64,000 nt of DNA from an uncultured Chryseobacterium sp. (lineage in GTDB: Bacteria; Bacteroidota; Bacteroidia; Flavobacteriales_D; Sanyastnellaceae): NCBI GenBank assembly GCA_964511555.1, contig CAZEFR010000001.1:83698-147697 (forward strand), in the 5' to 3' direction. Numbering within the stretch: position 1 is the stretch's first letter; each line of letters begins with the position of its first letter. Position numbers and translations under genes: made by a program. Under the pieces are notes generated by a model, which worked only from the letters and a program-made list of their open reading frames with translations, did no database searches and was not told where the DNA came from. Of the stretch, positions 1,635 through 21,710 are shown in pieces.

Positions 1635-1658
1635 GTTGATTGATTAGTTTATGTTAAA

Positions 1659-1683: not shown

Positions 1684-1755
1684 CTTCAACTTATTTTTAA
1701 TAAGTTCCAACGAACAAGATTTCACCGAATTAAAATATTCGTATCTTGTTCTCGT

Positions 1756-4572: not shown

Positions 4573-4575
4573 AAC

Positions 4576-6081
4576 ATGAAAAAAATCTACTCATTGATTG
4601 CAATTGCTTTGTTGAGTGTAACTGGTGCTTCTGCGCAGCGTTACATGACCGAGCAGTTTTCTTCGGTTGACGTTCAAACGGACGTTACCTATGGCGTTAA
4701 CGCTACTGTTTTGCTATTCCAAGTTGTTGGAGAAGCAGTGCCAGAACAGTTGAAAATGGATGTTTATACTCCTTCAGGAGACACTGAAACTAACCGTCCA
4801 GTGATTCTTTATTTCCACACGGGTAATTTCCTTCCTTTTCCGCAAAATGCTGGAACCGGTGGAACACGCACAGATTCTTCGGTTGTTGAGATTTGTACAA
4901 GATTAGCTAAGTTGGGATATGTAGTCGCATCTTGTGACTACCGCCTAGGTTGGAATCCGATTGCAGCAACACAAGAAGAGCGTGTAAATACGCTTATCAA
5001 CGCTGCTTACCGTGGTGTTCAAGACGGTCGTACTGCAGTTCGTTATTTCCGTAAGACTGCTGCTGAAGATGGTAACCCATACGGAATTGATCCTGAGCGC
5101 GTAGCTATTTGGGGACAAGGAACAGGAGGGTACATCACTTTTGCAATGTCAGGTATTGATGCTTATTCAGATTTGTTGTTGCCTAAGTTTACCTCTAGCG
5201 CTGGTATTCCAATGGTATTGGATTTCGTAAACGGCGATATTTACGGTACTTCTGTAGGAACGAATCCGTTTACAGGTGACACTTTGTGCTATGCCAACCA
5301 CGTTGGTTACAGCTCAGATGTGAACGTTGCTGTGAACATGGGTGGTGCATGTGGAGATATCTCTTGGATTGACGAGACCGACAATCCGATTATTTCATTC
5401 CACGTTCCTTCAGATCCTTTTGCACCGTATTTCACAGGAACCGTAATTGTTCCAGGTTTGAATTTACCTGTTGTGGAAGTTCAAGGAAGTTATGATGTAC
5501 AATTGGCATTGAGCCAGTATGGTAACAACGGCGTATTTGAATTGGCTGAAGGTTATGAGCCTGGTCAAGTTTATACAGATGCTGCGAATTCGACAAACAA
5601 TGGTTTTCATGGATTGTTCCCATTGGAAAGACCAGCGGGAATGGAAGCAGATTCAGGTCCATGGGAGTGGTGGGATCCAGCAACTAACCCAAACAGTGCA
5701 AACGGATTTTTAACAAATCCTGATATGTCAATGGCTAAAGGAATGGCTTATTGCGATTCTATTTTAGGGTATGCGGTTCCGCGTATCGCTTGTGCATTGA
5801 ATTTGAACACAAGTCCATGTTTCATTAGTGTAGACGAAATGGAAGAGGTTTCTTTCAATGTATTTCCAAACCCGGCTAACGAATCATTTGCTATCCGTGC
5901 TTCAGAGCGCGTTAGTGCAGTTCGTGTTTTCGATGCAATGGGAAGAGTGGTTTACAACTCGAACACAACCAATCAAGAAGTTGTATTTGTAGATTCTTCG
6001 AATTGGTCTGCAGGAATGTATACCGTAGAGATTCATACTTCGAACAATGCAATTGCTAGAAAGAAAATGTTGAAGAACTAA
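4576..6081 (+). CDS. Secreted alpha/beta-hydrolase-fold (esterase/lipase-like) protein with degenerate nucleophile motif and a T9SS type-A C-terminal sorting domain
   Basis: Signal peptide MKKIYSLIAIALLSVTGASAQ. YFHTGNF resembles the HGGGF oxyanion motif, and WGQGTGG sits where GxSxG is expected. The C-terminus FNVFPNPANESFAI..GMYTVEIHT..KKMLKN matches the Por secretion tail pattern. The gene starts 4 nt after the receptor gene. Confidence 0.7.
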   Translation: MKKIYSLIAIALLSVTGASAQRYMTEQFSSVDVQTDVTYGVNATVLLFQVVGEAVPEQLKMDVYTPSGDTETNRPVILYFHTGNFLPFPQNAGTGGTRTDSSVVEICTRLAKLGYVVASCDYRLGWNPIAATQEERVNTLINAAYRGVQDGRTAVRYFRKTAAEDGNPYGIDPERVAIWGQGTGGYITFAMSGIDAYSDLLLPKFTSSAGIPMVLDFVNGDIYGTSVGTNPFTGDTLCYANHVGYSSDVNVAVNMGGACGDISWIDETDNPIISFHVPSDPFAPYFTGTVIVPGLNLPVVEVQGSYDVQLALSQYGNNGVFELAEGYEPGQVYTDAANSTNNGFHGLFPLERPAGMEADSGPWEWWDPATNPNSANGFLTNPDMSMAKGMAYCDSILGYAVPRIACALNLNTSPCFISVDEMEEVSFNVFPNPANESFAIRASERVSAVRVFDAMGRVVYNSNTTNQEVVFVDSSNWSAGMYTVEIHTSNNAIARKKMLKN

Positions 6082-6105
6082 TTATTAGTTCTGATCATAA
6101 GAAGA

Positions 6106-6131
6106 AGGCCCTAGAAATAGGGCCTTTTTTT
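6106..6131 (+). terminator. Intrinsic terminator
   Basis: Hairpin AGGCCCTA-GAAA-TAGGGCCT (8 bp) followed by T7, located between convergent genes. Confidence 0.8.
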
Positions 6132-6150
6132 ATTGTCGTATAAATTGAAA

Positions 6151-6540
6151 TTAAGCTTTTGAGATTTTTTCAGACAGTATGGTATACTCTTCAGCTGTGA
6201 ATTTCAATCGCTCTTTTTCGAAATTCATATCGTGAATGTTGTTAATTGGAATTAGATGCATGTGTGCGTGCGGCACCTCTAATCCAATTACGCTTACACC
6301 AATTTTTTTACAAGGAATGACAGCTTGAATTTTACGAGCCACTTCTTTAGCAAACAAATTCAGTTCTTTTAACTCTTTTTCAGGCAAATCGAAGATGTAG
6401 TCTATTTCTTTCTTCGGAACAACAAGGGCGTGCCCTTTTGCGACAGGAAGAATATCTAGAAAGGCAATGAAGAGGTCGTTCTCCGCTATTTTATAACAGG
6501 GTATTTCGCCGTTAATAATTCGAGTGAACAGCGTTGCCAT
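6151..6540 (-). CDS. HIT (histidine triad) family protein
   Basis: Histidine triad HAHMHLIP. Size is 129 aa. The start overlaps the greA stop (TAATG). Confidence 0.9.
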   Translation of the reverse strand: MATLFTRIINGEIPCYKIAENDLFIAFLDILPVAKGHALVVPKKEIDYIFDLPEKELKELNLFAKEVARKIQAVIPCKKIGVSVIGLEVPHAHMHLIPINNIHDMNFEKERLKFTAEEYTILSEKISKA

Positions 6541-7013
6541 TATCTATTGATATCAAGAATTTCGAGTTGAAGGGTGCCAGCTGGTACTTGAACTTCAGCA
6601 ATATCTCCAACTTTTTTACCGAGAAGTCCTTTTCCAATAGGAGAATCTATGCTTATTTTTTTATTGGCAAGATTTGCTTCATTTTCGGCAACAAGCGTAT
6701 ACTCTACCTCTGTGTTAGTTTTTAAATTCTTCAATTTTACACGAGAGAGGATATATACGCGCGAGTTGTCAATATGCGAATCATCAATGAGTCTGGCGTT
6801 CGCAGCGAGATCTTCCATTTTCGCAATGCGCGCCTCAAGGTGGCCTTGCGCTTCTTTGGCAGCGTCGTATTCCGCATTTTCACTTAGGTCACCCTTATCC
6901 CTGGCTTCAGCAATTTGTTGACTTATTTTAGGACGTTCAACCATTTTAAGGTTGTAAAGTTCGTCTTTCAATTTTTTCAGTCCTTCAGCGGTGTAGTATG
7001 CAATATTCGACAT
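6540..7013 (-). CDS. greA: Transcription elongation factor GreA
   Basis: 157 aa with GDLSENAEYDAAKE and a C-terminal SPIGKGLLGKKVGD motif. Confidence 0.95.
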   Translation of the reverse strand: MSNIAYYTAEGLKKLKDELYNLKMVERPKISQQIAEARDKGDLSENAEYDAAKEAQGHLEARIAKMEDLAANARLIDDSHIDNSRVYILSRVKLKNLKTNTEVEYTLVAENEANLANKKISIDSPIGKGLLGKKVGDIAEVQVPAGTLQLEILDINR

Positions 7014-7036
7014 ATTTCAATGGTGTTGTAAATGAA

Positions 7037-7058
7037 GAAACCTCGCGAACGAGGCTTC
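7037..7058 (-). terminator. Candidate terminator hairpin downstream of the PorV-like gene
   Basis: On the minus strand: GAAGCCTCG-TTCG-CGAGGTTTC (9 bp with one G-T pair), followed by TTCATTT. The T tract is weak. Confidence 0.45.
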
Positions 7059-7061
7059 TAA

Positions 7062-7069
7062 CAAATATA
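7062..7069 (-). promoter_or_regulatory. Bacteroidota -7 box (TATATTTG) upstream of greA
   Basis: Plus-strand CAAATATA reads as minus-strand TATATTTG, an exact TAnnTTTG match. It lies about 49 nt upstream of the greA ATG. Confidence 0.4.
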
Positions 7070-7079
7070 GTAAGAATTT

Positions 7080-8117
7080 TTAAAGAGTAATGTGTATTCC
7101 CATACTGTGAATGCCATTGAATGGATTCGTAACACGATAAGAGTAATCCAATCCAATTACACCCCCATTGTCACCGGTAGGCAATTGAATGGTCATTCCA
7201 CCCGTAGGACCAGTTAGAGCACTTTGTGCATTGTAAGTGGTGCTTGAACCAATGTCTTGTTGGAATCCACCGCGTAAAAATAAACGGTCTCTGAGGTTGA
7301 ATTCTAAGCCCAAGGCAAGCTGATCTTTACTGAAAGAGTTAGACGTATAGGCGCTATTTGCAGTAAGTTTCATCTTGTTCTTCATAAGGAAGTCGTACGC
7401 GAAACCAACATTAACCATAGAAGGCATTTCATAAGGCTGCGAACGTTGCTCTACCGTAAGGGTGTTTCCATTTGAAGGAATGACAGCAGACACCGTAAGA
7501 CCGTCGCCTTTGTAGCGCATGGTTGGTCCAACGTTACGAAGCGTTATTCCGAAACGGATGTTATCTTTTTCTCCTGTAACATAACGTATACCCGCGTCGA
7601 AAGCAACACCTTGTGAGCGGACATTGTAGATAGCTTCACTTATAAGTCTAACAGTGATACCGCCATAAATACTGTTCGAAAATTCTTTTGCGAAACTGAT
7701 ACCTATGTTTGAATAGTTAGCAGTGAAAGAACCAATTCCACCTTCGGGAAGATCTTCGGTAGTTCTGTCAATTTCACCAAAGTTCATATTTACAACAGAC
7801 AAGCCAAAAGCTCCTGAATTGCCTATTTTTTGTCCGAAGGCAGCTGAATTAAGTTGTATGCCTGTACCAACGAAATACTGCGTATTTGTGAAAAGTAGTT
7901 CAGTCTTTTTGATGAAGGCGAGGCCAGCAACATTAAGGAAAACACTTTCAACGCCACTTACGGAAGCTAGCGAAGAGTTAGCTAATCCAGAAGAGCGAGC
8001 CCAGGGATTGACCAAAAGATGGCTTGCGCCTGCTGCTCCAGATCTGTCAGGATTTCCCGCAAATGCTGAAGTAAGCGTAACAAAGAGAATAGCGAACGTT
8101 AAGATTGTATTTTTCAT
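7080..8117 (-). CDS. PorV/PorQ-family-like outer-membrane beta-barrel protein
   Basis: Signal peptide MKNTILTFAILFVTLTSAFA. The N-terminal pattern GAAGASHLLVNPWARSSGLANSSLASVSGVESVFLNVAGLAF resembles the PorV signature (PFLLi.pDARaaglGd..A....s...NPAgLaf). Alternating beta-strand pattern throughout, ending HSMGIHITL. Confidence 0.55.
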   Translation of the reverse strand: MKNTILTFAILFVTLTSAFAGNPDRSGAAGASHLLVNPWARSSGLANSSLASVSGVESVFLNVAGLAFIKKTELLFTNTQYFVGTGIQLNSAAFGQKIGNSGAFGLSVVNMNFGEIDRTTEDLPEGGIGSFTANYSNIGISFAKEFSNSIYGGITVRLISEAIYNVRSQGVAFDAGIRYVTGEKDNIRFGITLRNVGPTMRYKGDGLTVSAVIPSNGNTLTVEQRSQPYEMPSMVNVGFAYDFLMKNKMKLTANSAYTSNSFSKDQLALGLEFNLRDRLFLRGGFQQDIGSSTTYNAQSALTGPTGGMTIQLPTGDNGGVIGLDYSYRVTNPFNGIHSMGIHITL

Positions 8118-8137
8118 GATCGTAATTCGATTTCCAA

Positions 8138-11100
8138 TTAGAAGTTATTTAAGTCAACGGGACGCATTACCCCAAACCATTTTAAGATTTTTTCTCCTAT
8201 GCCAGGTACGTTCACATGAATAATGTACGTTCCTGATGCAATGGGTATATTTCTTTCGTTTTTCAAATCCCAATCAATGCTTGTTATTTGATCTGCCTTC
8301 TTGAATTGACGAATACGATTTCCATTAAGGTCGAAAATGGTAACATCACAGATATCAGGAAGATTTGTAATCTTGATTCGATTATCAAGTTTATTGGTTT
8401 CGTAAGAACTGAAAGCATAGTAAGGGTTAGGAACAACATTAATGATATCAAGAACTGATGTTAAAGTGTTCTCGTCACTGGTTGTTGTGGCAATATTCTT
8501 CGTTGAGAAAGTATAGATATTGCGCCATTCGTTTACTGAACCTTCAGCTGATGTCAAATCTGGACTGTTGTATGCGTAGCTCGCGAAGGGTTTCGCAACA
8601 CGAATGCTTATACGCACGTCGTTAGGAATAAGACCTTCTTCAACCGAAAGCAAGGGATGCTCAGGATTTACCAATCCGCTGCCTACCCATGTACAACCTC
8701 TAAATACTTTTTTCCAGTTGGAAGAACTAATTGAAGGATTTGAGAGCGTGCTATGTAAGAAGGCTCCATTGTCGTAAGCTGGGCAAAGAGACAAGCTTGA
8801 GTTTGGACTCGATGCTGAGTAATCTTCCCAACGGAGGTTTTTAAATACATAGATCCAGTGTTGACCTCCAAATAAAGGTTGTCCGTTGTTGGTGTATAGA
8901 CGAGAGCTTGGATTCCAAATCATGTCGCGTCCGTTTTCACCAACCAACCAACTGTCTTCACCGAAAGCCATGTTCAAGCGTTCACCAGTACTTAAGTCGA
9001 TTGCATATCCAGGGAACCAACCCATTCCAATACCAGATACTAAGTCGCCTTCTGCTGCGTTGTATCCAGGTTGTCCGGCCTTTCTTCCATTTTTATCTAC
9101 GGATGGAGCGCGACGCACCTTCATTTTCTCAGGATCAACGCTATTATCTCCATCGTTATCTTCAGCCAATTCAGGGGTAAACTGCATTTCCAATACAGGG
9201 CAGCGGGTCCATTTAGTCTTGTCTTTGGTGAAAACAACATCTATATTGTTCAAACCACGAATACTCGATTTACGCTGCTGATCAAGTTGATCGAGATCAC
9301 TTTTTAGTTCGTTAATGGTAGGAGCAACGTTGTTTACCACGATGTTGTCGTCGTTCGGGTCAAGAACAGTACCTGAAACTAAGCAATAAGGAGACCATGT
9401 ACCACCAACTACCGCTTCGTATTTTTCTTGCTCATCTGTGAATGGGAAACCTGAGCTACCTTGCTCGTAATCGTCGTACAAGGCTTCTGATAATGCTTGC
9501 GGATCAGTTCCTTCAGTTTTTACATTACCAGCCCTAATCCAGTTTTGCTCAGAGAAACCTTCAGCATCCTGAATACCAGTCAACCACGGTTTAGATGGAT
9601 CGGCGTAAGAAATAGTAGAGGACAAAAGTTCGGTGTAATGTCTCACGGTGCTTCCTTCAACTTGGTATTCATATTGTCCCCAAGTAACAGATAAGCCCCA
9701 ATCTAAAATAACGTCTTCACTTGAAGTGTCAAACTTTTTATAAGTACCATAGATAGTTCCATCATCCAGGTTTTCAAGTTCCCAGTACATACTATCAGGT
9801 GCATCTTCACCGAATTCAGTAGTTTTCAGACGAAGTTCAAAGTCAGCAGATGGAACTCTCAAAGGATCAACAACTTTAACCTGCACAGGACCTTTTCCAG
9901 GAGCATAGGTGAGTTCACTTATGTTGTTATTTGCCAAAATGATAGCTTCAGTTTCTGAACTGAGTAATAGATCGTTAGCGCCATTACCTTTTCCCTCAAG
10001 ACGGGTAAGCGGAACACCGTCGCCGTAATTCGAATTTTGTATAGTTCCACCTAATTCAGGCGAAGGAATATGTGGAATAGCAGCTATTTTTTGAATAGCA
10101 CCAAGAGCGCTCTTGCGTGAAGAAAGGAATGCTTCATCTTGACCTTTCTCTAGACCAATATCGTATTGAGAGTAGTTGTTATATCCGTAAGCAATTACCA
10201 TGAAGTAATACGTCTTGTGATTTATCAAGGCGTTATTACCAGTTGCGAATGCATCAGTGGTAACTCGGAATGAGCGCTGAATACCCTCATCTGCACCGTC
10301 TACCTTAAGTTCTGGAATAATATATCCTGTTTCAGGATCTCTAGAGAAATTAATTATTCTTCCAATGCCATTTTCTACGTCACATTGTGCAATTAAGCGA
10401 GCCTTCTGAATATCACCGAGGTCGCTGGCGCTTACATCGTCGCTAGCTCTTTGGTATACTAGATATCCTTCAAATTTATAAGATCTTTGCTCTTCTGTTA
10501 ATTGCGTACCATCTGCAAGTTCTTCTGGGATACTTGGGTCGAAACCACCTTGACTAGGACCATAATTTTCTTGGAAATTTGTGGAGATAGCATTGTCATT
10601 TGACAACATAAGAATGATCTCTTTGTCTAATTCCTGAATGGTAACATCTGGTGCATCAGGACCTGAAACCAACTCGAAACAATTGTCAAATAGAGATTGT
10701 GCTTTATCATCAAACTCGCGAAGAAGTCTTACCGACTCAAAAGGATTTCCGCTATTTGCACGAGCCCAAACAACTCCAAGAGTAATGTTGTTGTAATCAC
10801 CAGGCTTGAGTGTGAATGGGCCTGCTGCTTGAATAAAACGTCTGTCATTTGGCGGATTGCCTTCAGATTCTTCGGACCAATCTTCGGTGATCACTCCACC
10901 TGTACCCCAATGCAAAGGGTCAGTGTCATCTGGGAACATATAGTCAGCATTGATTTCTGTTACATTAGCACCAGAGGCGCCGTTTCCGCCGTAGTTCATG
11001 CGTTGTCCATTCTTCCAAAAACCTCTCATGTAATTGTAGAAGTGACTTGGTAATGCAGGTTCTCCGTTTACAGGATTTTGACTGTTGTTGTAATAAACGA

Positions 11101-12331
11101 ACTTTCTCATTCCAAAACGTTCGTTGTCTACAACACCATCGCCGTATCCAATACCCAAACCTTTGTAGGGAATACCGTCTTCGTCAATTGCTTCAAGTAT
11201 ATCGGTTGTAAGCGGGTTATCTTTGTTATCGGCATCTTGGTAGGGTCCTTCGAAGAAATCCACACCAACCGCTGGTGGGTTCGCACCATAACCTAGCGAA
11301 GAAGCAGTAGTCTCATCGAAGGCATCTCCGTTGTAGCAGTATCCAAGACCACGTTGAACATCACAACCAACATAGTCATCTACAGAAGTACCCAAGTCAG
11401 CATCAACCCATGATCCGAAATAAGTTTCTGTTAATGTTTGTGAACCTTGGTTAATTAGGACGTAATTGTAGAAAGTCATGTTATTAACCTCGTCGTTCGA
11501 AGTAAAAGCAAAAGCTTGAGCACGAATCTCCATTCCAATGGGTTGTCCTTGAGATTCGGTGTGCGCATTTCCTTTATCGTTGAAGATCCAATAAAAAGTT
11601 TGGTCACCGTAAAGAGGAACAATGTCTTCTCTACGACGCTCAGCACAATTGATTTCTCTTAAGAAATCGTACCAAGGATAGTCACCGTTTTGAGGGTTAT
11701 AGAATCCATCATTGTCGTAATCGTAAAATGGTGCCAGGTATAAATCTTGGCCTGCAGCAGTATTTCCAATAGCAGGGTATTCGTAGAAGTAACCAGGAAT
11801 AGCATAGTCTGTAGCACAGTCAGTTCCTCCGGCTTGAATGCAATCGTAATATGCTCGGTGCTTTTGGGCATCTTGTCTGAAAGAGACAAAGAATCTATCG
11901 TACTGCTCGCAAGTGGTTTCATTCACGGATGCTGTACCATCGTTAGTAAGAGGACCGGGCCAGTAGTCATTTCCAGATGCTCTGAACGTAATCGCTGCCA
12001 ACTTCAGCTGTTGGTCTGGCGATATACCACCCATCCACAATGAACCGGCATATATTGAAGACACTCCGCTTCCTTTCGGAACTTCGTAAGCTGCTCTGCT
12101 TAAAGAACGACTTTGCCACATGGAACCACCTGTTTCAATGAGTGCTTTAACGTTGTTCCAAGCCAGGTCTCTTAGACCAGTAGCAGGAGCGCACAATGCT
12201 GCTCTCGATTCTGCTACAACATCAGCATTCTGGGCCATCCCTGAATTTTCAAGTACTGATTTGTAACCGAATGCTTGGTTAGCAAAACCAAGTGAAAGAG
12301 CAATTAGACCGAGGTATATATTTTTTCTCAT
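8138..12331 (-). CDS. Very large secreted protein of unknown function with DxDxDG calcium-binding-type motifs and a T9SS-like C-terminal domain
   Basis: The ATG at 12331 gives the signal peptide MRKNIYLGLIALSLGFANQAFG; the ORF track extends to 12349. Motifs FYDYDNDGFYNP, AIDEDGIPY and AEDNDGDNSVDP are present. The C-terminus VVPNPYYAF..VTIFDLNGNRIRQF..WDLKN..ASGTYIIHVNV..KILKW resembles a type-A/FlgD-Ig-like sorting domain. Confidence 0.75.
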   Translation of the reverse strand: MRKNIYLGLIALSLGFANQAFGYKSVLENSGMAQNADVVAESRAALCAPATGLRDLAWNNVKALIETGGSMWQSRSLSRAAYEVPKGSGVSSIYAGSLWMGGISPDQQLKLAAITFRASGNDYWPGPLTNDGTASVNETTCEQYDRFFVSFRQDAQKHRAYYDCIQAGGTDCATDYAIPGYFYEYPAIGNTAAGQDLYLAPFYDYDNDGFYNPQNGDYPWYDFLREINCAERRREDIVPLYGDQTFYWIFNDKGNAHTESQGQPIGMEIRAQAFAFTSNDEVNNMTFYNYVLINQGSQTLTETYFGSWVDADLGTSVDDYVGCDVQRGLGYCYNGDAFDETTASSLGYGANPPAVGVDFFEGPYQDADNKDNPLTTDILEAIDEDGIPYKGLGIGYGDGVVDNERFGMRKFVYYNNSQNPVNGEPALPSHFYNYMRGFWKNGQRMNYGGNGASGANVTEINADYMFPDDTDPLHWGTGGVITEDWSEESEGNPPNDRRFIQAAGPFTLKPGDYNNITLGVVWARANSGNPFESVRLLREFDDKAQSLFDNCFELVSGPDAPDVTIQELDKEIILMLSNDNAISTNFQENYGPSQGGFDPSIPEELADGTQLTEEQRSYKFEGYLVYQRASDDVSASDLGDIQKARLIAQCDVENGIGRIINFSRDPETGYIIPELKVDGADEGIQRSFRVTTDAFATGNNALINHKTYYFMVIAYGYNNYSQYDIGLEKGQDEAFLSSRKSALGAIQKIAAIPHIPSPELGGTIQNSNYGDGVPLTRLEGKGNGANDLLLSSETEAIILANNNISELTYAPGKGPVQVKVVDPLRVPSADFELRLKTTEFGEDAPDSMYWELENLDDGTIYGTYKKFDTSSEDVILDWGLSVTWGQYEYQVEGSTVRHYTELLSSTISYADPSKPWLTGIQDAEGFSEQNWIRAGNVKTEGTDPQALSEALYDDYEQGSSGFPFTDEQEKYEAVVGGTWSPYCLVSGTVLDPNDDNIVVNNVAPTINELKSDLDQLDQQRKSSIRGLNNIDVVFTKDKTKWTRCPVLEMQFTPELAEDNDGDNSVDPEKMKVRRAPSVDKNGRKAGQPGYNAAEGDLVSGIGMGWFPGYAIDLSTGERLNMAFGEDSWLVGENGRDMIWNPSSRLYTNNGQPLFGGQHWIYVFKNLRWEDYSASSPNSSLSLCPAYDNGAFLHSTLSNPSISSSNWKKVFRGCTWVGSGLVNPEHPLLSVEEGLIPNDVRISIRVAKPFASYAYNSPDLTSAEGSVNEWRNIYTFSTKNIATTTSDENTLTSVLDIINVVPNPYYAFSSYETNKLDNRIKITNLPDICDVTIFDLNGNRIRQFKKADQITSIDWDLKNERNIPIASGTYIIHVNVPGIGEKILKWFGVMRPVDLNNF

Positions 12332-12360
12332 GCTGTGTGAATAAATCATTTTGAAGAAAA

Positions 12361-15300
12361 TTAAAAATCAAATCTCATTCCTAAACGTATTTGACGTGGC
12401 GCACCCAAATTGAAAGGATTGTTGACAAACATGCTGTAGTAGTTTCTGAATGATTCAGGATTGTTTTGGGTGTTGATTACGTTCTGGTATTGAGCCGCGG
12501 CAAGGTAACCGTCGTCATCAGGAGTTCCAGTAAATCTGTATACACTTGAGACATTTTGAGTATTCAACAAGTTTGTTATCCAGAAGTAAACGTTCAGATT
12601 TGCAGCTTTTTGTTTGTCTCCTTCTCCCCCGAACTTCAAACTGAAGTTCTTATCGAGGTTCATGTCAACAGTGAATTGCCATGGAAGACGTGAACTGTTG
12701 ATGCCACCTGCAGTTGTTGGGCTAATTTCCCCTGTAATGGGCGTGGGGAATACTTGAGCGGTGTATGGAGTACCTGAACCCAAGTTAGCTATAAGGTTAG
12801 CACCTGTATTTGCAAAAATTTGTTTTCCAAACCAAACGGGTCCGTTGTATTCTTTTCCTTCTCCATAACGATAGTCTACAGTAGTCACAATTCTGTGACG
12901 CTGATCGTAATTCACAGGAGCTACAGTTCTTAAGTTTGGAAGTCCTGCATTAATAAGGGCCAATTGCGTTTGTGTAGTTGAACCTGTTCCGTCTGCGAAT
13001 TGAAGCGTATACGAGGTTTTCATCCAAAGATTACCTGTTCTTCTCAAATCATAAGTTAAGGTCAAACCTTTAACAGTACCGAAGTCAAGGTTTCCGAAGG
13101 CACTATATGTGCTCGGGTATGCTCCATTGAATCGGCGAACTTGTATCATGTCGCGTAATTCACGATAGAAAGCTTCAACTTTGATAGAAGATGTTTTAGA
13201 CAAAACTTGTTGGAAACCAAGTGCGTAATCTACTGTTTTTTCAGGACGTAGATCAGGGTTATTTAACAACACGTTTCTGTTTTCCATAAACAAATAATCA
13301 ACTGGATTGAAGCGATTGCTTGTTGTTGGACGTTGTGTTAGGATGTCGTAGTGCGCGAAGAATAGCGCCTCTTCCGAGATAGGGAAAGAGAAGGCTACGC
13401 GAGGCATGAAGTTAACAGCAGGTGTATATTCTCTGAAGGCATTGCTTGTTAGAGCAGCATCTGGGTCAACGCTCAAATATGGATTAATTTTTCCACCTGC
13501 AGCAATGCTTGTGAAAGGGTCATTTACAAGTGTTCCTTGTGCATTGTACCAGTTATCGCCATCGCGGTATCCTTGAATCGCCGTTGGGTTGTTTATATCA
13601 TCTACGTAAACCACGAAGTTGTCTCCAATGTTGGATGGACGAGAAGTACCGAAGTCGCCAAAATCAACCTCACCTGCGGTAAAGGCTTCACTGATAACGT
13701 AAGGATCCTTCGGAACGTATTGGTTTGCATCGTATCTGTCGATACGCAGACCCACGTTAAAGATTAAGTCGTCGAAGGCGAACTTATCCATGATATAACC
13801 TGAAATGTATACAGGCTCGAAAGCACCTACCGAACGAGTATAGTATGAACCATTTCCAAGAGAATACCTTTCAGCGAAGAAATCGTCTAAAGATGGTCTT
13901 CTGCTTAACATGTTACCTCTGTGATCGAAACCGAAATAGGTAACTACGTTATTTCCTGAGTTTAATAGGTCATCGGCACCGAACATGTCAACTGACAAGA
14001 AATCTGGACTCAAACCATCTGTGTTTATAAAATCTGTTCCGTTAGGATCAAGACCCATAGCAGTTCTTAGATTATAATCGAACTCAAATTGATCGCTACC
14101 AACGAGATTTGCGTAATCTACGTATGTGAATGTTCCGTTGTTCGAATAAATAGGGCTATCTGTGTCTAACTCTTGGTTGTGGTAGTTTGCATATTGACGG
14201 GCTAGCGTCCACAAGCTAATAGGAGCAACCGCGTATCCGGCATCTTTACGCTGCTCGAATTCAAAACCAACTTCGATGGCGTGATCACCGATATCAGCAG
14301 AGCCAGAACCGGAAACACGGAATTGATTGTTTCGAGAAATACTATAGTTGTTTGATTTAGCACCAACGTGTGACCAAAGATCATAAGTTCCGGCGGGCTG
14401 TTGGCCATTCACTAATCCATTACCACCTTGAATATTGGTTATCGAAGCATATGGAGAATTACCAATCTGCTCTGTTTCTGAGGTAAAGTCATTTATAGAG
14501 GGGTCGAAGAATTGGTTGTCTGTAATAATAGGATCTGTTCCATTCAATACTTCGGTTACATATGGATTGGTATTGAAAAGTGTGAAGAATTGGTTTGTTA
14601 TTGCAGCAAGGTCAGGATTGTATTCAGACGGTGTGAAGTTCACGTTAACGTCCTGCCAACCGTTCTGCTCGAAATAGTTTCCAGAACTATTTAATGTGTA
14701 TGAAGGCGTTCTGAAAATGTCGAAATTACCAACGTGACCATATCGGAAAAGATTTCCACCGTGTGTAGCGTCTTCTGACCGATTGTATGAGCTGCTATAA
14801 TCTGCTTGAATTCTGTAGAATACATTTTTAAGATTCGAGCTTGCAGATTCGTCTTCTGCATTTTTGAAACGCTGCGCGAATTTCGCGTAAGCACGCCAAT
14901 CGAGCCCTGTGTTTTGCTGGTTATTCTCCCAGTTCATTAACATGTTTCCATAGTCAAAACCATTTCCGCGACTTATCGCTGCTGTACCCCCGAAGGTTAG
15001 CGTAACGTTTTCAGAGGCATTTAAATCAATTTTACCAACAAGATTCGCTTGTCTATTGCGAACGTTCATTCGCGTATTGATTTTTTCAAAATCATTTGCT
15101 GTTAAGAAATCGGCATTGTAAAGTGCGCCGTTTACTGTTCCGTCAGCCTGAACGTTTTGACGCAATGGATTTGCCAAAAGTCCTTGACGAGCATCTTCTT
15201 TCATGCGATAAACTCCACCAAAGGTTGGTCCACCGTCTACAATATCTGTGTAGTTTCCTGATAAAAAGAAGCCAAGGATAGGTCGCCCTTTTGTTCCGTC

Positions 15301-16122
15301 AGCCTTTTTTCTAAACAAAATAGGTCCAGATAAAGAACCTTCAAGAAGGTTATAGCCGTAATAATCCAAACCTACTGCTTTGTCTCCAACTTGAAAACCT
15401 GAGGTAATTGCTTCAATACCCCCGGTGTATTCAGACGAAGCTGATCTCAGTGATATGTTAATGACACCGCCCGTTGCATCACCAATATTTGCTGGAATAC
15501 CACCGGTGATTACAGAAACTTCTTCGATAGCAGATTTCGGAAGTGAAGTAGACCCACGAACCTTAATACCATCAATGTATACCCATGTCGAATTGGTGCG
15601 GGCACCACGAATAGAGATACCTCCACCTGTTCCGGCTGAGCTAACACCTGCAACGGTTTGTGCAAGGCCAAGCGCATCACGACTAGGCATTTTCTCTAAC
15701 TCTTCGCGAGTTACAGTTCCTCCGGAAGCACCACCATCTTTATCAATGAGGGGAATTCGGTATTCTTTAATTTCTACGGTATTCATTTCCACCCCTGGGC
15801 TCAATTCAGCATTCGCGAATTGAATTTTTCCGGCAGAAATAGGAATTCCTGTTTGACTTTGGGTCTGGTAACCAACAAAGTTGAATTGAACCTCGTAGGT
15901 TCCAGGATCAATTGGTTTAATGGTGTATTGTCCATCTGGATCTGTTTGGCCACCTGTAATCAGATTTCCATTCAAAAACAGAACCACATTCACGAAGGGA
16001 AGAGGTTTCTTTGTCTCTTTGTCAATGACTTTTCCTTTTAAAGATCCACCGTTTCCTTGTGCAAATAAACTTGACACTGAAAGGATCATAAAACTCAAAA
16101 GGAGGTATACTTTTCTCTGCAT
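12361..16122 (-). CDS. Oversized (1253 aa) TonB-dependent-receptor-like outer-membrane protein with CarboxypepD_reg N-domain
   Basis: Signal peptide, then LKGKVIDKETKKPLPFVNVVLF..DPDGQYTI. Plug region (ISIRGARTNSTWVYIDGIKV, GGIPANIGDATGGVINI), and a terminal barrel strand RQIRLGMRFDF. Confidence 0.85.
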   Translation of the reverse strand: MQRKVYLLLSFMILSVSSLFAQGNGGSLKGKVIDKETKKPLPFVNVVLFLNGNLITGGQTDPDGQYTIKPIDPGTYEVQFNFVGYQTQSQTGIPISAGKIQFANAELSPGVEMNTVEIKEYRIPLIDKDGGASGGTVTREELEKMPSRDALGLAQTVAGVSSAGTGGGISIRGARTNSTWVYIDGIKVRGSTSLPKSAIEEVSVITGGIPANIGDATGGVINISLRSASSEYTGGIEAITSGFQVGDKAVGLDYYGYNLLEGSLSGPILFRKKADGTKGRPILGFFLSGNYTDIVDGGPTFGGVYRMKEDARQGLLANPLRQNVQADGTVNGALYNADFLTANDFEKINTRMNVRNRQANLVGKIDLNASENVTLTFGGTAAISRGNGFDYGNMLMNWENNQQNTGLDWRAYAKFAQRFKNAEDESASSNLKNVFYRIQADYSSSYNRSEDATHGGNLFRYGHVGNFDIFRTPSYTLNSSGNYFEQNGWQDVNVNFTPSEYNPDLAAITNQFFTLFNTNPYVTEVLNGTDPIITDNQFFDPSINDFTSETEQIGNSPYASITNIQGGNGLVNGQQPAGTYDLWSHVGAKSNNYSISRNNQFRVSGSGSADIGDHAIEVGFEFEQRKDAGYAVAPISLWTLARQYANYHNQELDTDSPIYSNNGTFTYVDYANLVGSDQFEFDYNLRTAMGLDPNGTDFINTDGLSPDFLSVDMFGADDLLNSGNNVVTYFGFDHRGNMLSRRPSLDDFFAERYSLGNGSYYTRSVGAFEPVYISGYIMDKFAFDDLIFNVGLRIDRYDANQYVPKDPYVISEAFTAGEVDFGDFGTSRPSNIGDNFVVYVDDINNPTAIQGYRDGDNWYNAQGTLVNDPFTSIAAGGKINPYLSVDPDAALTSNAFREYTPAVNFMPRVAFSFPISEEALFFAHYDILTQRPTTSNRFNPVDYLFMENRNVLLNNPDLRPEKTVDYALGFQQVLSKTSSIKVEAFYRELRDMIQVRRFNGAYPSTYSAFGNLDFGTVKGLTLTYDLRRTGNLWMKTSYTLQFADGTGSTTQTQLALINAGLPNLRTVAPVNYDQRHRIVTTVDYRYGEGKEYNGPVWFGKQIFANTGANLIANLGSGTPYTAQVFPTPITGEISPTTAGGINSSRLPWQFTVDMNLDKNFSLKFGGEGDKQKAANLNVYFWITNLLNTQNVSSVYRFTGTPDDDGYLAAAQYQNVINTQNNPESFRNYYSMFVNNPFNLGAPRQIRLGMRFDF

Positions 16123-16364
16123 AAAAACCAGGTTAAGGAATTATTAAACTATACAACGGCCGCTAAAATAAGGCAAGCTTGGCTTAATTACCAAAGTTCG
16201 TTGAAGCAATCTGTATTTTTTTTGTTATTTATTCTGATTATCAAAGTGCTAGACTGTTTCGGCTAAAGGTAAAAAGCGAATTTAAGCAGTTCAATCAAGC
16301 ATTCGGTACCGATTCGTTTTTTTTGGTCTTGAAATGAGCGGTTTTTTTTCTTTTCTAAGAATGT

Positions 16365-16640
16365 TTATTGCCTCCGAACCCACATGCGCTTGTACCAAGG
16401 CATATTTCCAAGTCTCCTCAGTCTTTGTGATTTTTTTAGGTTTTTTCTCATTCTCTTTTTTCCTTTTTTTCCTTGTGCATCTTGATGTTTTTCTACCCTT
16501 TGCAAGTATTCAGTTTCTATGAGATCGTGTTGTTCTTTGCGTTTTGCCCGAGAGTTTTCAGGAGTTATGACTGTGTTGTCGGGTTGTCCGAAAACCGTGA
16601 ATCCGAAGAAAATAAAAATTAAAGTCAAGAGTTGTTTCAT
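16365..16640 (-). CDS. Small secreted polybasic protein (hypothetical)
   Basis: Signal peptide MKQLLTLIFIFFGFTVFGQ followed by a Lys/Arg-rich tail. The ATGA start/stop overlap with the upstream gene supports that this ORF is real. Confidence 0.5.
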   Translation of the reverse strand: MKQLLTLIFIFFGFTVFGQPDNTVITPENSRAKRKEQHDLIETEYLQRVEKHQDAQGKKGKKRMRKNLKKSQRLRRLGNMPWYKRMWVRRQ

Positions 16641-17536
16641 TTTCTGAATTCGTATGAATACTTCGTAATCGTTATGTCTTTGGAGTTCATGTCTTGGTCA
16701 AGCGTAGCTTCTATGAAGGAAGTTGAGGTGTACAAGATTTCGATTTCTCTTTGAAGGACAGCATTAGAGTGGTATGACACTTTTGTTAAGTTTCCTATTC
16801 TATCATATTGAAAAGACTCACGTTTAATCTCTTTCTTAGAGGCGTTTTCGATGGTTGATATTTGTGCAATCCAGCCCTTGTCGTTGTAGGTGTATTCTTT
16901 CGTGAAGCTCTTTCCGCTAAGGTTCAGCTCTTTTTCTTCTCTGGTGACAAATCCGGAAGAATCTCTGTAAACCAAATCAACTGAATAAGGAAGGCCGTAA
17001 TTGTTGAAGCTTTCTCTTCGAAGTGTATATGCTGAAGGCTCGCTGTACTTGAAAGACTCAGAGTTCACAGTTACAGTAAGTCCTGGTATAAGCTTTAATT
17101 TGTCAACGCTCTTATTTTCAGAAACAGAGTTGTCAATTCGTTCCACCCTTCCTTTATTATCGTAAAAGAATGAGGTTGTTGAATAGCCGTTGCGACCCAA
17201 TTCATTTCTATTTTGAACTAAGCCCAATTCATTTCTGTCAAATACAATATGCGTGCTATCAACGATACTTAGCACACTTGTTACCGCGTCGATTTTTGAG
17301 AGTTGCCCAGTTTCGTTGAAGTGGTAGACTACAATATCGGGTCTGTTTTCTATTGCCTTTCCAGTTCTCTTCATTTGGCATACACCGGTTATGCTTATGA
17401 TTTTATTCTGCCAAAGAAATTCCTGACTAAAAAACATTTCAGACTGAAAGGCCTTTCCTTCACGGTTGTCAATAATTTGAGTTGCACCTGAATGGGCTAT
17501 GAAAAGGGTTATGGCAAAAAATAAGTTACGAATCAT
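16637..17536 (-). CDS. Secreted protein made of YD/RHS-like repeats (hypothetical)
   Basis: Signal peptide MIRNLFFAITLFIAHSGA. Repeated Y/F-D-x-x-G motifs: YHFNETGQLSKID, FFYDNKGRVERID, YTYNDKGWIAQIS, FQYDRIGNLTKVS. Confidence 0.7.
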   Translation of the reverse strand: MIRNLFFAITLFIAHSGATQIIDNREGKAFQSEMFFSQEFLWQNKIISITGVCQMKRTGKAIENRPDIVVYHFNETGQLSKIDAVTSVLSIVDSTHIVFDRNELGLVQNRNELGRNGYSTTSFFYDNKGRVERIDNSVSENKSVDKLKLIPGLTVTVNSESFKYSEPSAYTLRRESFNNYGLPYSVDLVYRDSSGFVTREEKELNLSGKSFTKEYTYNDKGWIAQISTIENASKKEIKRESFQYDRIGNLTKVSYHSNAVLQREIEILYTSTSFIEATLDQDMNSKDITITKYSYEFRK

Positions 17537-17650: not shown

Positions 17651-18919
17651 ATGAAAGACCAAATTATTTTCGATTTAATCGAGCGCGAGAGGATCCGACA
17701 AACAAACGGAATAGAGCTAATCGCTTCAGAAAATTACGTAAGCAATGACGTTATGCAGGCTACGGGGTCTGTTCTTACGAACAAGTATGCGGAAGGTCTT
17801 CCGAGAAAGAGATATTATGGTGGTTGCGAGGTGGTAGATGAAATTGAACAAATTGCGATTGATAGATTGAAGATGTTGTTTGGCGCTTCATGGGCGAACG
17901 TTCAGCCTCATAGCGGGGCTAATGCGAACAGTTCTGTAATGCTGGCAATACTTAATCCGGGAGATGCTATTTTGGGCCTAGATCTTTCTCAAGGTGGGCA
18001 CCTAACCCACGGCTCTCCTGTAAACTACTCGGGAAAATTGTACCGACCGTTTTTTTACGGGGTGGAAAAAGAAACCGGACGGGTAGACATGAATAAAGTT
18101 CGAGAAAAGGCTATAGAGTGTAAACCTAAGCTTCTTATTTGCGGAGCAAGTGCATACAGCCGCGATTGGGATTATGCTGCATTTCGGTCGATAGCCGATG
18201 AAGTTGGGGCTGTACTTTTAGCAGATATTTCTCATCCGTCTGGTCTCATAGCTGCCGGATTGCTCAATCATCCCTTTCCTCATTGTCACATTGTAACCTC
18301 TACCACTCACAAAACCTTACGTGGACCGAGAGGCGGTGTGATTATGGTTGGAAACGACATGCCAAATCCATTGGGTTTAAAAACTATGAAGGGTGAAGTT
18401 CGTTCGCTATCTTCAGTGCTTGACAGTGGGGTGTTTCCGGGTATGCAAGGCGGCCCGCTAGAGCATGTTATAGCGGCGAAAGCTGTAGCTTTCAATGAGG
18501 CCTTAACAGATAATTTCAAATTATATGGAAAGCAGGTGATGGCTAACGCGAGTGCCCTTGCAGATCATCTTACCGCAAAGGGTTATGAGATTGTTTCCGG
18601 AGGTACAGATAATCACTGTTTCCTTATTGATCTTCGTAATAAAAATATTTCGGGAAAGGATGCGGAGCATGCCCTTGTAAGTGCAGAAATTACCGTGAAT
18701 AAAAACATGGTTCCTTTCGACGATAAATCACCGTTCGTCACTAGTGGAATTCGAATTGGAACACCAGCAATTACTACTCGCGGATTGAACGTCAGTGATA
18801 TGGCTTTTGTGGCCAATGCAATTGATAAAGTTATTTCAAACGCTTCAAACGAAGATGTGATTCGAGCAGTGAAAATGGAAGTACACGAACAAATGTCTTC
18901 GAGACCATTATTTGCGTAA
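17651..18919 (+). CDS. glyA: Serine hydroxymethyltransferase
   Basis: The ATG at 17651 gives [13 protein letters not shown]. Motifs seen: LIASENY, TNKYAEG, and [14 protein letters not shown] (PLP lysine). Confidence 0.95.
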
Positions 18920-20485
18920 TCTGAAAAGATCTTCTTTTGATAGAGGGCGCTCGTTTCCGCGCCAAATAAAGTCCTCCAATTTGAATTGTGAGGATTTTGT
19001 TTTTTGAATGCTATTGTACAAGCTGTTTGGCTCGTTTTCAAGTGTAACTTTTTGAATTGCTTTTTCTTTCAATTCAATGCGAATGTTCGAACAGTCTGAT
19101 CTGTTCAAACCGGTGAGTTTAGTGCTTTTGTTTTTCTCTTCTGTTGAGAAATAGGCGAGTTGTCCATTTCCATTAATTTGAACTTCGTGAAGATCGTTTT
19201 GAATGAATTGTCCGTGCAGCGATTTCCCTTTTATCTGGTTGAAGTATCCGGGCACAACTTCGGATGCTAAAAAACTTTTCTCTGGAACAAAAAGAAAATC
19301 TAAACTGTCATTTTTGAAGTGCAGATTTATCTCTGTTCCCGTAAGTTGATTTGCGTCGTTCCACAGGACGGGAGAGTAGAACATTCGCATGACTGAATCT
19401 GCTTCAGACAGTGAAAGAGAATCGCATTTGCCTTGTAAGTCTTTGCTGAACAGAATCACGTTGTGATAGGCTTTAATGTCGCGGTTTTTATCACTTGTTT
19501 TCTTGGCAAACAGAGTGTCAGCTACAATGAAAAGCGTGTCTTTATTTTCGAGTGTTTTTTCGAGAATACTTTTTCCGGTTACCCATGAAATTTCGTTTGT
19601 TTCCTCGTGCCTTCCATAATCACCCCGAATGGTTAAGTCGGAATTGTTGTCAACGATAATTACATGCTGAAAAGCTTCGCCCCATTTCTCTTTTCCATTG
19701 TAAAAAATGCTGTCACCGAATAGCGTTTGTTCTTTCGATTTTACGCGTGCATTTTTCTTGAAACTGCAGGTCTCTGTTTTCGAATTGAAGAAACCGTTTT
19801 CACATGTTATTTCAAGGTCTTTTCCTGTTATTGTTGTGGGTCCGAAGAAATAGGATATCTCTGTAACAGTGTTGTAAAGCATGGTGTCTGAAATTACAGT
19901 GTAGTCTTTGTTCTTGACAGTTACTTTTCTGCGAAAAGTGAAATTGTTAGAAGGGCTGTGATAGCGTCCCGTTTGAGAAACCAATTCGTTGTTATTCTTG
20001 CTTGAAACTACCTTGCCACCTCCGGAATATGTTGCTACTTCAGTTTTCAGGTTGTAAGACATGTTGGGTGAAGTAAGGGTCATTGCCCCATCTGTGAAAA
20101 TACAATTTTCGTTTATGGTTGCAACCTGGGTGGCGTCAGTGAAAAAGAGTTTTTTTCCTGAAATAGTGTACTCACCTGGTTTGTTTACACGAATGTTTCC
20201 GAAAGCCTGGAAATTTCCATTATTAAATTTATATGCCGAATCACAAAGAAAATTCGTGCCGTCGAAGTTCAAATGAACGTTTCCTAATAGGCGTTGCCCA
20301 TTGACTAGATTTTTGTTGAATGCAATTTTATCGGCATGCACCAATTGCACGTGTTTGCCTTGTCCTTCTGCGTTCTGCGAAATCAGAAATACGGAAAGCG
20401 CAACAAGAAGTATTTTAACGAAGTTGTGTATTGTTCGCGGTTTATCTAACAATGGTTTGCTCACGGTCTGGACCAACGGAAACAT
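18908..20485 (-). CDS. OstA-like (LptD N-terminal-like) domain protein
   Basis: Repeated OstA-like beta-jellyroll segments ([34 protein letters not shown]). No start codon lies downstream of the purA stop, so the start (M at 20485 or 20515) overlaps purA by 44 or 74 nt. Confidence 0.7.
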
Positions 20486-21710
20486 AGGTGATAGGAATTT
20501 CCAATTCCTTTTCAATGAATGCGATGTAATCTGACAGCTCCTGTGGGAATTCTTCGATTGTTCTAATTTTAGTCAAATCAGTATTCCATCCTTTTAAAGT
20601 GGTGTAAATAGGCTCTACTTTTCCGTCTAACAAATCGTAAGGCATCTCATCTGTTTGCACACCATTGATTGTGTAGTGTGTGCAGACATGAATTTCTTCA
20701 AAGATGCTAAGTACATCTGCCTTCATCATGTACAACTCTGTGATTCCGTTTAGTCGACAAGCATAGCGAAGCGCGGGAATATCTAACCAACCGCAGCGAC
20801 GAGCACGACCGGTTGTAGAACCGAATTCGTTTCCTTCTTTGCGCATGCGTTCTCCAACTTCATTTTCTAGTTCAGTGGGGAATGGGCCACTGCCAACACG
20901 GGTGCAATAGGCTTTGAATATTCCGAATGCCGATCCAATGGAATTCGGTGCAATACCCAGTCCAGTGCACGCTCCCGCAGCAACCGTGTTACTTGAAGTA
21001 ACAAACGGATAAGATCCGAAGTCAATATCGAGAAGTGAACCTTGGGCACCTTCAGCTAAAATCTTTTTGTTTTCGCGAATGGCTTTGTGCAGGTAATTTT
21101 CGCTGTCTATGAAGGTTAAAGTCTTTAACACTTCGATTCCTTGGAACCACGCTGCTTCCATCTCGTCAAGTGAATATTCGAATTGAAAATGCGAAAGCAT
21201 TTTCTTGTGCTTTTCTACAAGCGTGTTGTATTTTTCGATGAAGTTTTCTGAAAGAATGTCACCGATGCGAAGGCCATTGCGACCTGTTTTGTCCATGTAG
21301 GTTGGACCAATACCCTTCAAGGTAGATCCAATTTTAGACTTCCCCTTTTCGGCTTCAGAAGCTGCGTCGAGAAGCTTGTGTGTCGGAAGAATGAGATGCG
21401 CTTTTTTCGAAATTAGAAGTCGTGATGCAACATCTACATTTTTAGCATTGAGTTTTCCTATTTCGGTAGCGAAAACGATGGGGTCAATTACAACGCCATT
21501 TCCAACTACATTGGTAACATGATTATGGAAGATTCCACTTGGAATGGTGTGCAGAACATGTTTTGTTCCGTTGAACTCGAGGGTATGACCCGCATTGGGT
21601 CCGCCTTGAAATCTGGCTACGATGTCGTATTTCGGAGTTAATACGTCTACAATTTTCCCTTTTCCTTCATCGCCCCACTGAAGGCCTAACAATACGTCTA
21701 CTTTGCTCAT
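20442..21710 (-). CDS. purA: Adenylosuccinate synthetase
   Basis: QWGDEGKGKIVD P-loop, GPNAGHT, TTGRARRCGWLD. Confidence 0.97.
   Translation of the reverse strand: MSKVDVLLGLQWGDEGKGKIVDVLTPKYDIVARFQGGPNAGHTLEFNGTKHVLHTIPSGIFHNHVTNVVGNGVVIDPIVFATEIGKLNAKNVDVASRLLISKKAHLILPTHKLLDAASEAEKGKSKIGSTLKGIGPTYMDKTGRNGLRIGDILSENFIEKYNTLVEKHKKMLSHFQFEYSLDEMEAAWFQGIEVLKTLTFIDSENYLHKAIRENKKILAEGAQGSLLDIDFGSYPFVTSSNTVAAGACTGLGIAPNSIGSAFGIFKAYCTRVGSGPFPTELENEVGERMRKEGNEFGSTTGRARRCGWLDIPALRYACRLNGITELYMMKADVLSIFEEIHVCTHYTINGVQTDEMPYDLLDGKVEPIYTTLKGWNTDLTKIRTIEEFPQELSDYIAFIEKELEIPITYVSVGPDREQTIVR

Follow-up and report, generated by a model that had tools for sequence, protein, structure and literature searches.

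A conserved outer-membrane gene trio of Bacteroidota with a type IX-type secreted protein, a PorV/PorQ-family barrel and a TonB-dependent receptor-like barrel

Introduction

The principle by which an outer-membrane barrel anchors a large surface protein is known from PorU with PorV, from PorZ with PorQ and from type B cargo proteins with PorP/SprF barrels, and so are the superfamilies of the components that concern me here. PorZ and PorU are type IX secretion system (T9SS) components that retain their C-terminal domains (CTDs) and are bound to PorQ and PorV, respectively (PMC10202324). Here I analyse a stretch of 64,000 nucleotides (nt) from contig CAZEFR010000001.1 of an uncultured bacterium (assembly GCA_964511555.1), called the window below, and in it three adjacent genes on the minus strand. 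Gene 1 encodes a divergent TonB-dependent receptor-like outer-membrane barrel of 1253 amino acids (aa), gene 2 a secreted all-beta protein of 1403 aa that I refer to as BIG, and gene 3 a PorV/PorQ-family barrel of 345 aa. Coordinates are those of the window, and protein positions are those of the window proteins unless relatives are named. In the explanation that I favour, tentatively, the trio forms one conserved, T9SS-dependent outer-membrane module.

The literature that I searched held no description of the BIG family itself, of a conserved derived tail paired with a private barrel of a PorV/PorQ subfamily, or of such a protein and barrel fixedly coupled to a TonB-dependent barrel that is not of the SusC type. 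A first-pass annotation of this DNA, made from the sequence alone, had likewise been unable to name a characterised system with this architecture.

Results

The order of the three genes is kept over a wide range of relatives. I took 80 loci from a genome scan and read their gene order by tblastn with the window proteins; 51 of the roughly 67 informative loci carry the genes for the receptor, BIG and the PorV-like barrel in that order, with those for GreA and a HIT-family protein next, and they do so down to about 41% identity. Represented among them are Flavobacteriales (Crocinitomicaceae, Fluviicola, Cryomorphaceae and Vicingaceae, with Fluviicola represented only by metagenome-assembled genomes, MAGs), MAGs labelled Bacteroidales, Lentimicrobiaceae and others, with median distances of 42 and 59 nt between matched protein segments. 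A separate 4.9-Mb contig, looked up independently, has this order too, at 44% protein identity. Synteny among relatives is strongly conserved. In the window the open reading frames (ORFs) are separated by 11 nt (genes 1 and 2) and 20 nt (genes 2 and 3), and the first spacer becomes 29 nt if BIG begins at Met7, the start used in the identical database entry P0001; the tight spacing that the first-pass annotation had read off the letters agrees with these coordinates.

The trio proteins also co-vary. Their distance matrices correlate with one another at r = 0.91-0.92 and with those of the flanking GreA and HIT proteins at 0.56-0.76, and a partial r of 0.82-0.84 is left within the trio after controlling for GreA and HIT, which supports a link within the trio. 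All these values come from a mirror-tree measure that protein length inflates, since distances are less noisy for long proteins than for the short GreA and HIT.

BIG occurs by itself as well. Twelve clear loci, and five more with short flanks, hold a solo copy amid unrelated genes, whose products include a UvrD-like helicase, a mannosyltransferase and an M28 peptidase. Since solo copies are several times sister to trio copies in a neighbour-joining tree, they look like lineage-specific duplicates. The solo copies keep the distinctive tail; in one MAG the tails of the solo and the trio BIG are 82% identical and their bodies 69%, which would fit one shared docking barrel.

In the relatives L067 (about 3-13650) and L072 (about 470-6930) the trio has a second BIG paralogue directly beside it, bounded on one side by the PorV-like gene or greA and on the other by the HIT-family gene, which suggests that local tandem duplication is the origin of the solo copies. 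The Crocinitomicaceae contig PACT01000037.1 holds two incomplete sets: in L011 the receptor gene and BIG precede genes for HlyD and AcrB, and L013 has a UvrD-like helicase gene, BIG, the PorV-like gene, greA and the HIT-family gene. These complementary sets of partners may reflect a trio split by rearrangement or a contig misassembled across paralogues.

Gene 3 encodes a member of the PorV/PorQ family, as the first-pass annotation had proposed. Its protein scores 139 bits (cutoff 90) on the family model NF033709, with aa 30-344 covering model positions 3-325 of 326, and 22 of 22 gene 3 orthologues match the same model (best E 1.6e-46). It falls below every equivalog model of the family: 76.6 bits on PorQ (NF033711; cutoff 220; E 1.7e-21, aa 5-200 only), 58.1 bits on PorV (NF033710; cutoff 250; N-terminal half only) and 43 bits on PorV2 (cutoff 325). 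All 22 orthologues likewise fail the equivalogs, the best PorQ E among them being 2.9e-24. Because the family model is matched over its full length and all equivalogs are missed, gene 3 represents a distinct PorV/PorQ subfamily, nearest to PorQ by score and close to PorQ (37.9 kDa; PMC5445135) in size. A profile of the orthologues finds the solved Flavobacterium johnsoniae PorV in the PDB (6h3i_F, 8e-16; 9e-5 for the single sequence), with the FadL-family protein TodX as a faint match. Five of the 22 orthologues also match the PorP family weakly, and one matches BamG weakly.

The more specific claim, that gene 3 is a private PorV paralogue encoded next to one giant cargo, holds in part. The family membership stands, but the protein is nearer to PorQ, and solo BIG paralogues with the same tail are present elsewhere in many genomes, so that the barrel is not a one-cargo device. 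A permanent PorQ/PorZ-style anchor fits better than a PorV-style shuttle, because gene 3 is nearer to PorQ and because the BIG tail is PorZ/PorU-like and exceptionally conserved.

The tail of BIG appears to be a derived type A T9SS CTD. In the window protein it scores 22.2 bits on TIGR04183 (cutoff 23) and 5.7e-5 on the CTD part of the PorZ model. Among 29 diverse family members TIGR04183 is matched by 16 (best 3e-13), the CTD part of the PorZ model by 18 (best E 6e-10) and PF18962 by four. The relatives thus lend support to the suggestion that the C-terminus resembles a T9SS type A sorting domain, although the tail in the window itself stays just short of the cutoff. A profile of the BIG family run against all PDB sequences finds only two tails, that of PorZ (5m11, E 0.011) and that of PorU (6za2, E 0.22). 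The tail is also the second most conserved region of the protein, with a mean pairwise identity of 63% among 80 members against 31-56% for most of the body, and conservation of this degree is not expected of a generic cleaved sorting signal. Two further cargo proteins of the window, an esterase and a CotH-like protein, have canonical CTDs (both 49 bits on PF18962). Relative to these, the BIG tail is longer by two inserts, of 11 and 7 residues, and by the 12-residue extension FGVMRPVDLNNF at its C-terminus, whose last residue is a conserved Phe.

These two reference cargos are worth describing in their own right. The CotH-type protein (46827-49817, minus strand; 996 aa) has CotH, lamin-tail and chitobiase C-terminal domains together with its canonical CTD; this genome thus uses ordinary type A tails, unlike that of BIG. 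The esterase belongs to a gene pair directly beside the trio, at 1651-6081 on the plus strand. The first gene of the pair encodes a 973-aa TonB-dependent receptor with CarbopepD_reg_2, Plug and barrel domains, and the second, which begins 3 nt later, the 501-aa BD-FAE/esterase with its canonical CTD, so that this is a second pair of TonB receptor and T9SS cargo without SusD.

Gene 1 has the N-terminal CarboxypepD_reg domain, the plug and the aromatic C-terminus (...RFDF) that had been ascribed to it. Pfam places the plug at aa 136-220. Both domains are found in 22 of 22 orthologues, whose profile, run against the PDB, finds the plugs in Cir (2e-12), FepA and PirA. The barrel is harder to recognise. 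The window protein leaves the Pfam barrel model PF00593 unmatched even at E = 10 and shows a partial TonB_dep_CU match (aa 957-1094), although 10 of the 22 orthologues match TonB_dep_Rec_b-barrel (best E 1.9e-12), for which reason I regard the family, from its sequences, as a true but divergent TonB-dependent receptor family. The roughly 1,000 residues C-terminal to the plug greatly exceed what classical receptors have there. A strand with the consensus VE[IV]xxYxVPLIxKD joins the N-terminal domain to the plug and is kept in all 22 orthologues; by its position it may act as the TonB box.

A SusC/SusD identity was considered and rejected. Neither gene 1 nor any of its 22 orthologues matches the SusC/RagA models of NCBIfam, and a Pfam scan of the neighbouring ORFs finds no SusD family, as the first-pass annotation had noted; gene 1 is therefore not of the SusC type.

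The N-terminus of BIG looks by eye like a signal peptide, as had been claimed, and has no lipobox cysteine. The protein has no Pfam match even at E = 10, its body has no PDB sequence match by single-sequence or profile search, and Pfam and NCBIfam scans of the 29 diverse members return tail-type matches only. The family is very large: one search scored more than 6,700 homologues, the best 120 of which are full length at 57-100% identity, and at E<1e-3 an exhaustive search gave 7,518 clusters (50% identity), 2,277 of them below 1e-30. Identity across orders is 40-60%. The relatives are named only 'hypothetical protein' or 'T9SS type A sorting / C-terminal target domain-containing protein'. The label KSB1 stands on one entry, and Salibacter halophilus is a cultured carrier of the family.

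A first AlphaFold model, built from 40 close homologues, had a mean predicted local distance difference test score (pLDDT) of 59, and I note its Foldseek matches only as agreeing with those of a second run. The second model (AF2, 54 sequences chosen for diversity) reached a pLDDT of 85.6 and a predicted template modelling (TM) score of 0.70, and is almost wholly beta. Among the matches listed in a Foldseek search of the PDB, E values run from 4e-5 to 1e-3 and TM scores from 0.1 to 0.22 over about 350-560 columns. The enzymes matched are of the glycoside hydrolase (GH) family types GH15, GH94, GH116, GH65 and GH161, and in my reading the alignments fall on their beta-supersandwich domains; a viral structure library gave fn3-repeat and GH65-sandwich matches only. 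Since these matches are weak and partial, the modelled body has no global analogue among solved structures, and its resemblance to carbohydrate-active enzymes and fn3 repeats is only a hint of glycan binding.

Three stretches of BIG are strongly conserved besides the tail (Table 1). The family consensus at aa 205-228 is LAPFxDxDGDGxYNPxxGDYPxYD, in which A206, P207, D223 and P225 are invariant, and this motif may bind metal. The first-pass annotation had counted several DxDxDG-type loops. The protein has a single strict D-x-[DN]-x-[DN]-G loop, the family-conserved DYDNDG at aa 210; the other two that had been quoted are looser DxDG matches, and the third lies in a variable region. The block at aa 1108-1164 clusters the invariant residues F1112, P1113, G1114, Y1115, R1124, N1126, E1131, D1142, N1146 and H1164 and is a possible ligand or metal site.

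Several identities for BIG were tried and rejected. For a glycoside phosphorylase or hydrolase, the alignments are partial (about 350-560 columns, TM 0.1-0.22), and the few helices of the model make an (alpha/alpha)6 catalytic barrel unlikely. As for the PorU sortase, the window protein matches neither Peptidase_C25 nor the PorU model NF033707, which just two of the 29 family members match (best E 3e-05), and, the tail apart, neither sequence nor fold gives a match to PorU. PorZ fails as well, with 21.7 bits on its equivalog (cutoff 260) from the tail only and no propeller fold matches; PorU, PorZ and beta-propeller proteins are absent from the 50 PDB matches listed by Foldseek. Beyond the CTD there is no family or sequence match to other T9SS components, SprA not having been compared directly.

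Table 1. Features of the trio and its immediate flanks in the 64,000-nt window.
Feature	Coordinates	Strand	Basis or remark
greA (6540-7013) and HIT-family gene (6151-6540)	6151..7013	-	Pfam matches; same strand 3' of the trio in most related loci
Stable hairpin between gene 3 and greA	7036..7059	-	-14.9 kcal/mol; z = -4.4; 0/200 shuffles as stable
Gene 3, PorV/PorQ-family outer-membrane barrel, distinct subfamily, 345 aa	7080..8117	-	NF033709
Gene 2, secreted all-beta protein BIG, 1403 aa	8138..12349	-	Family without a Pfam or NCBIfam model for the body
Apparent derived type A T9SS CTD of BIG, aa 1301-1403, with extension FGVMRPVDLNNF	8141..8449	-	TIGR04183; PorZ CTD
Second conserved block of BIG, aa 1108-1164 (GMGWFPGYAID..TGERLNMAFGEDSW..NGRDMIWNP..GGQHWIYVF)	8858..9028	-	Invariant-residue cluster
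Most conserved core of BIG, aa 251-370	11240..11599	-	Mean pairwise identity 69%, 80 family members
Ca-loop-like motif of BIG, aa 205-228 (LAPFYDYDNDGFYNPQNGDYPWYD)	11666..11737	-	Conserved in the family
Gene 1, divergent TonB-dependent receptor-like outer-membrane barrel, 1253 aa	12361..16122	-	CarboxypepD_reg and Plug
Plug domain of gene 1, aa 136-240	15403..15717	-	PF07715, 5e-11
TonB-box-like strand of gene 1, aa 115-129 (VEIKEYRIPLIDKD), just before the plug	15736..15780	-	Orthologue conservation
CarboxypepD_reg (prealbumin-like) N-terminal domain of gene 1, aa 27-114	15781..16044	-	PF13620, 4e-15; PF13715, 8.5e-15
Intergenic region 5' of the trio, likely promoter region	16123..16364	-	242 bp; 33% GC against 42% in the trio

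The AT-rich gap upstream and the hairpin downstream that the first-pass annotation had listed as signs of one operon were both recovered (Table 1). In this putative operon the closely packed genes are those of the trio, but greA and the HIT-family gene come after it on its strand in most loci. A scan of the gap for sigma-70-like promoters gave weak matches only, in a number not above that in shuffled sequence. Because a clean U-tract is absent 3' of the hairpin, which a simple terminator scan left unlisted, its role as a terminator is uncertain.

The surroundings are of a housekeeping kind in a Pfam scan, with GreA and the HIT-family protein downstream and serine hydroxymethyltransferase, an OstA/LptA-like protein and adenylosuccinate synthetase upstream; the conservation of the greA and HIT-family neighbours is probably positional only. 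The nearest relatives of the window are MAGs of freshwater Flavobacteriales and Crocinitomicaceae at about 90% protein identity. Directly upstream of the trio, at 16365-17536 on the minus strand, two ORFs with signal peptides encode a 299-aa protein with weak RHS-like repeats and a 91-aa protein with a very basic tail. They are kept in the closest relatives only, down to 47% identity, for which reason I rejected them as operon members and left them out of the unit. Also near the trio (18908-20515, minus strand) is a gene for a 535-aa protein with tandem OstA-like, LptD_N and LptC-like domains, whose synteny is lost in more distant relatives. Farther away (23765-26517, minus strand), adjacent genes encode an LPP20-like protein (460 aa) and a CsgG-like protein (456 aa), possibly an outer-membrane secretion or assembly pair.

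Discussion

The reading that I favour, tentatively and at a little under even chances, is that BIG is exported by the T9SS, that its cognate PorQ-like barrel keeps it on the surface and that it is used there as the capture partner of the adjacent TonB-gated barrel. BIG would be exported by Sec and then by the T9SS by way of its derived type A CTD. The tail would stay uncleaved and dock on the cognate PorV/PorQ-family barrel, as PorZ does on PorQ and PorU on PorV, and this docking would keep the protein of about 150 kDa at the cell surface. There BIG would most likely serve as an extracellular capture or lid partner of the gene 1 barrel, the role that SusD lipoproteins have for SusC, and the barrel would take up the captured ligand, possibly a glycan, with energy from TonB. 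The data show to which families genes 1 and 3 belong, that BIG has a T9SS-type tail of unusual conservation and that the gene order is kept, whereas retention of the tail, the contacts among the three proteins, the direction of transport and the nature of the ligand are what I infer. That the trio amounts to an unrecognised and widespread Bacteroidota machine, in which a PorQ-like barrel permanently holds the 150-kDa BIG, a protein of new fold, against an oversized TonB-gated barrel, seems to me somewhat unlikely.

Several observations weigh against the reading that I favour. The fold matches of BIG are weak, which leaves the glycan idea thin. The tail of the window protein lies just under the TIGR04183 cutoff and has no match to the Pfam CTD model (PF18962). 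About a fifth of BIG family members stand alone, without either partner gene, and the co-variation within the trio is exaggerated by protein length. Finally, the high conservation, the single module per genome and the housekeeping neighbours would suit a core function of the envelope better than a nutrient system.

The last of these points is shared by an alternative that I consider unlikely and yet deserving of close comparison, namely that the trio is an accessory or attachment-type T9SS module, or a module for surface glycan or lipopolysaccharide, analogous to PorF-PorZ-PorQ of Porphyromonas gingivalis and importing no nutrient. Its strong conservation, once per genome and amid housekeeping genes, would suit such a role. 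PorQ gives the best equivalog score of gene 3, whose 345 aa are about right for a protein of 37.9 kDa (PMC5445135), and the PorZ tail is the best match of the BIG tail. PorF (PG0534), of 92 kDa, is predicted to be TonB-receptor-like and is required for T9SS function, and in strain W50 the mutants in porQ, porZ and porF have a phenotype in common (PMC12704123). However, the tail is all that BIG shares with the PorZ equivalog, its confident model has no listed Foldseek match to beta-propellers or PorZ, and every one of the 22 gene 3 orthologues misses the PorQ cutoff widely. Gene 1 is also some 400 residues longer than PorF (an alignment of 829 columns; PMC7323717), and the locus numbers in P. 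gingivalis are far apart (porF PG0534, porZ PG1604, porQ PG0602).

It is also conceivable, if quite improbable, that the three genes are mere neighbours, with BIG an ordinary T9SS adhesin or enzyme served by the general PorV, and the barrel and receptor unrelated to it. greA and the HIT-family gene are, after all, conserved beside the trio with no obvious functional tie, and solo BIG paralogues occur without partners. Linkage that is only positional sits badly, however, with gaps of 11 and 20 nt, with an order that is the same in 51 loci down to about 41% identity and with trio proteins that co-vary far more with one another than with GreA or HIT, and the 63% conservation of the tail would be unexpected if it were a cleaved generic sorting signal. 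Least probable of all, and in my judgement very improbable, is a TonB-dependent barrel that acts outward, aiding the export or release of BIG or of another surface component and importing no ligand. Oar helps to export or release the protease PopC in Myxococcus in such a manner, and gene 1 has Oar-like traits in its N-terminal CarboxypepD_reg domain, its lack of a SusD partner and its oversized barrel region, which extends for about 1,000 aa beyond the plug. Yet BIG has its own T9SS signal, so that a second export route would be unnecessary; the solo BIG paralogues have no receptor gene, and no Oar-type barrel family is found among the Pfam matches at E up to 10.

Whichever of these holds, BIG represents a family of more than 7,500 clusters at 50% identity without a domain model, a named function or a global PDB analogue. 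If its tail is a permanent docking tag, the anchoring seen in PorZ-PorQ and PorU-PorV would extend past the secretion machinery to an effector module, and the tail would be the first type A-derived CTD, beyond those of the T9SS core proteins PorU and PorZ, to act as a docking tag that is dedicated and heritable. If BIG works with the gene 1 barrel as I propose, Bacteroidota transporters would have a SusD-independent route to a surface partner, a third way of giving a TonB-dependent transporter an extracellular partner besides SusD lipoproteins and soluble binding proteins. If the trio is instead a divergent counterpart of PorF, PorZ and PorQ, it could help to clarify the role of PorF.

Comparison with known systems

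In the SusC-SusD systems and utilisomes, as in the trio, a Bacteroidota TonB-dependent barrel with a CarboxypepD_reg-type domain is genetically coupled to a large surface partner. The trio differs in having no SusC/RagA signature and no SusD, and its partner would be a T9SS cargo held by a third protein, in place of a lipoprotein. Its conservation is also far above that typical of polysaccharide utilisation loci.

BamG and BamH of the Bacteroidota β-barrel assembly machinery (BAM) complex resemble genes 3 and 2 in that the loops of a FadL/PorV-superfamily barrel hold a large extracellular protein (PMC12578637, PMC12611786), although BamH is a surface lipoprotein. An identity with BamG/BamH was rejected for want of sequence evidence: the PDB profile matches of BIG and gene 3 are limited to the PorZ and PorU tails, PorV and faintly TodX, a negative that holds for BAM subunits if their structures were in the PDB set searched. 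The type B CTD cargos with a PorP/SprF-like barrel, such as SprB-SprF (PMC12618676, PMC9143113), share with the trio, as I read it, the principle of a dedicated adjacent barrel that specifies secretion and surface anchoring of the cargo, whereas the BIG tail is derived from type A and gene 3 belongs to the PorV/PorQ family.

PorF (PG0534 / Fjoh_0118) is a TonB-dependent-receptor-like barrel, as gene 1 is, and has a functional tie to the T9SS in a role that is unknown (PMC5445135, PMC12704123); at about 830 aa against 1253 aa it is much the shorter, the two being compared here by length and description only. The porU-porV pair has the same order as genes 2 and 3: its first gene encodes a protein longer than 1,100 aa that retains its CTD, and the gene for a PorV-family barrel comes immediately after it. 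Among the PDB matches of the BIG profile, the PorU tail ranks second. Unlike PorU, BIG has no C25 peptidase or sortase signature, 6za2 is absent from the Foldseek matches listed, and gene 3 fails the PorV equivalog (58 against 250 bits).

PorZ-PorQ, from the T9SS attachment complex of P. gingivalis, has a large surface protein whose retained, type A-like CTD sits on a PorV/PorQ-family barrel, as I propose for the trio. The best match of the BIG tail is that of PorZ, and gene 3 is PorQ-sized with PorQ as its top equivalog score. The two differ in the body of BIG, which is unrelated to PorZ, and in gene 3, which reaches 76.6 bits against the PorQ cutoff of 220. They differ also in layout: the genes of the trio are adjacent, and the unit includes a TonB-dependent barrel.

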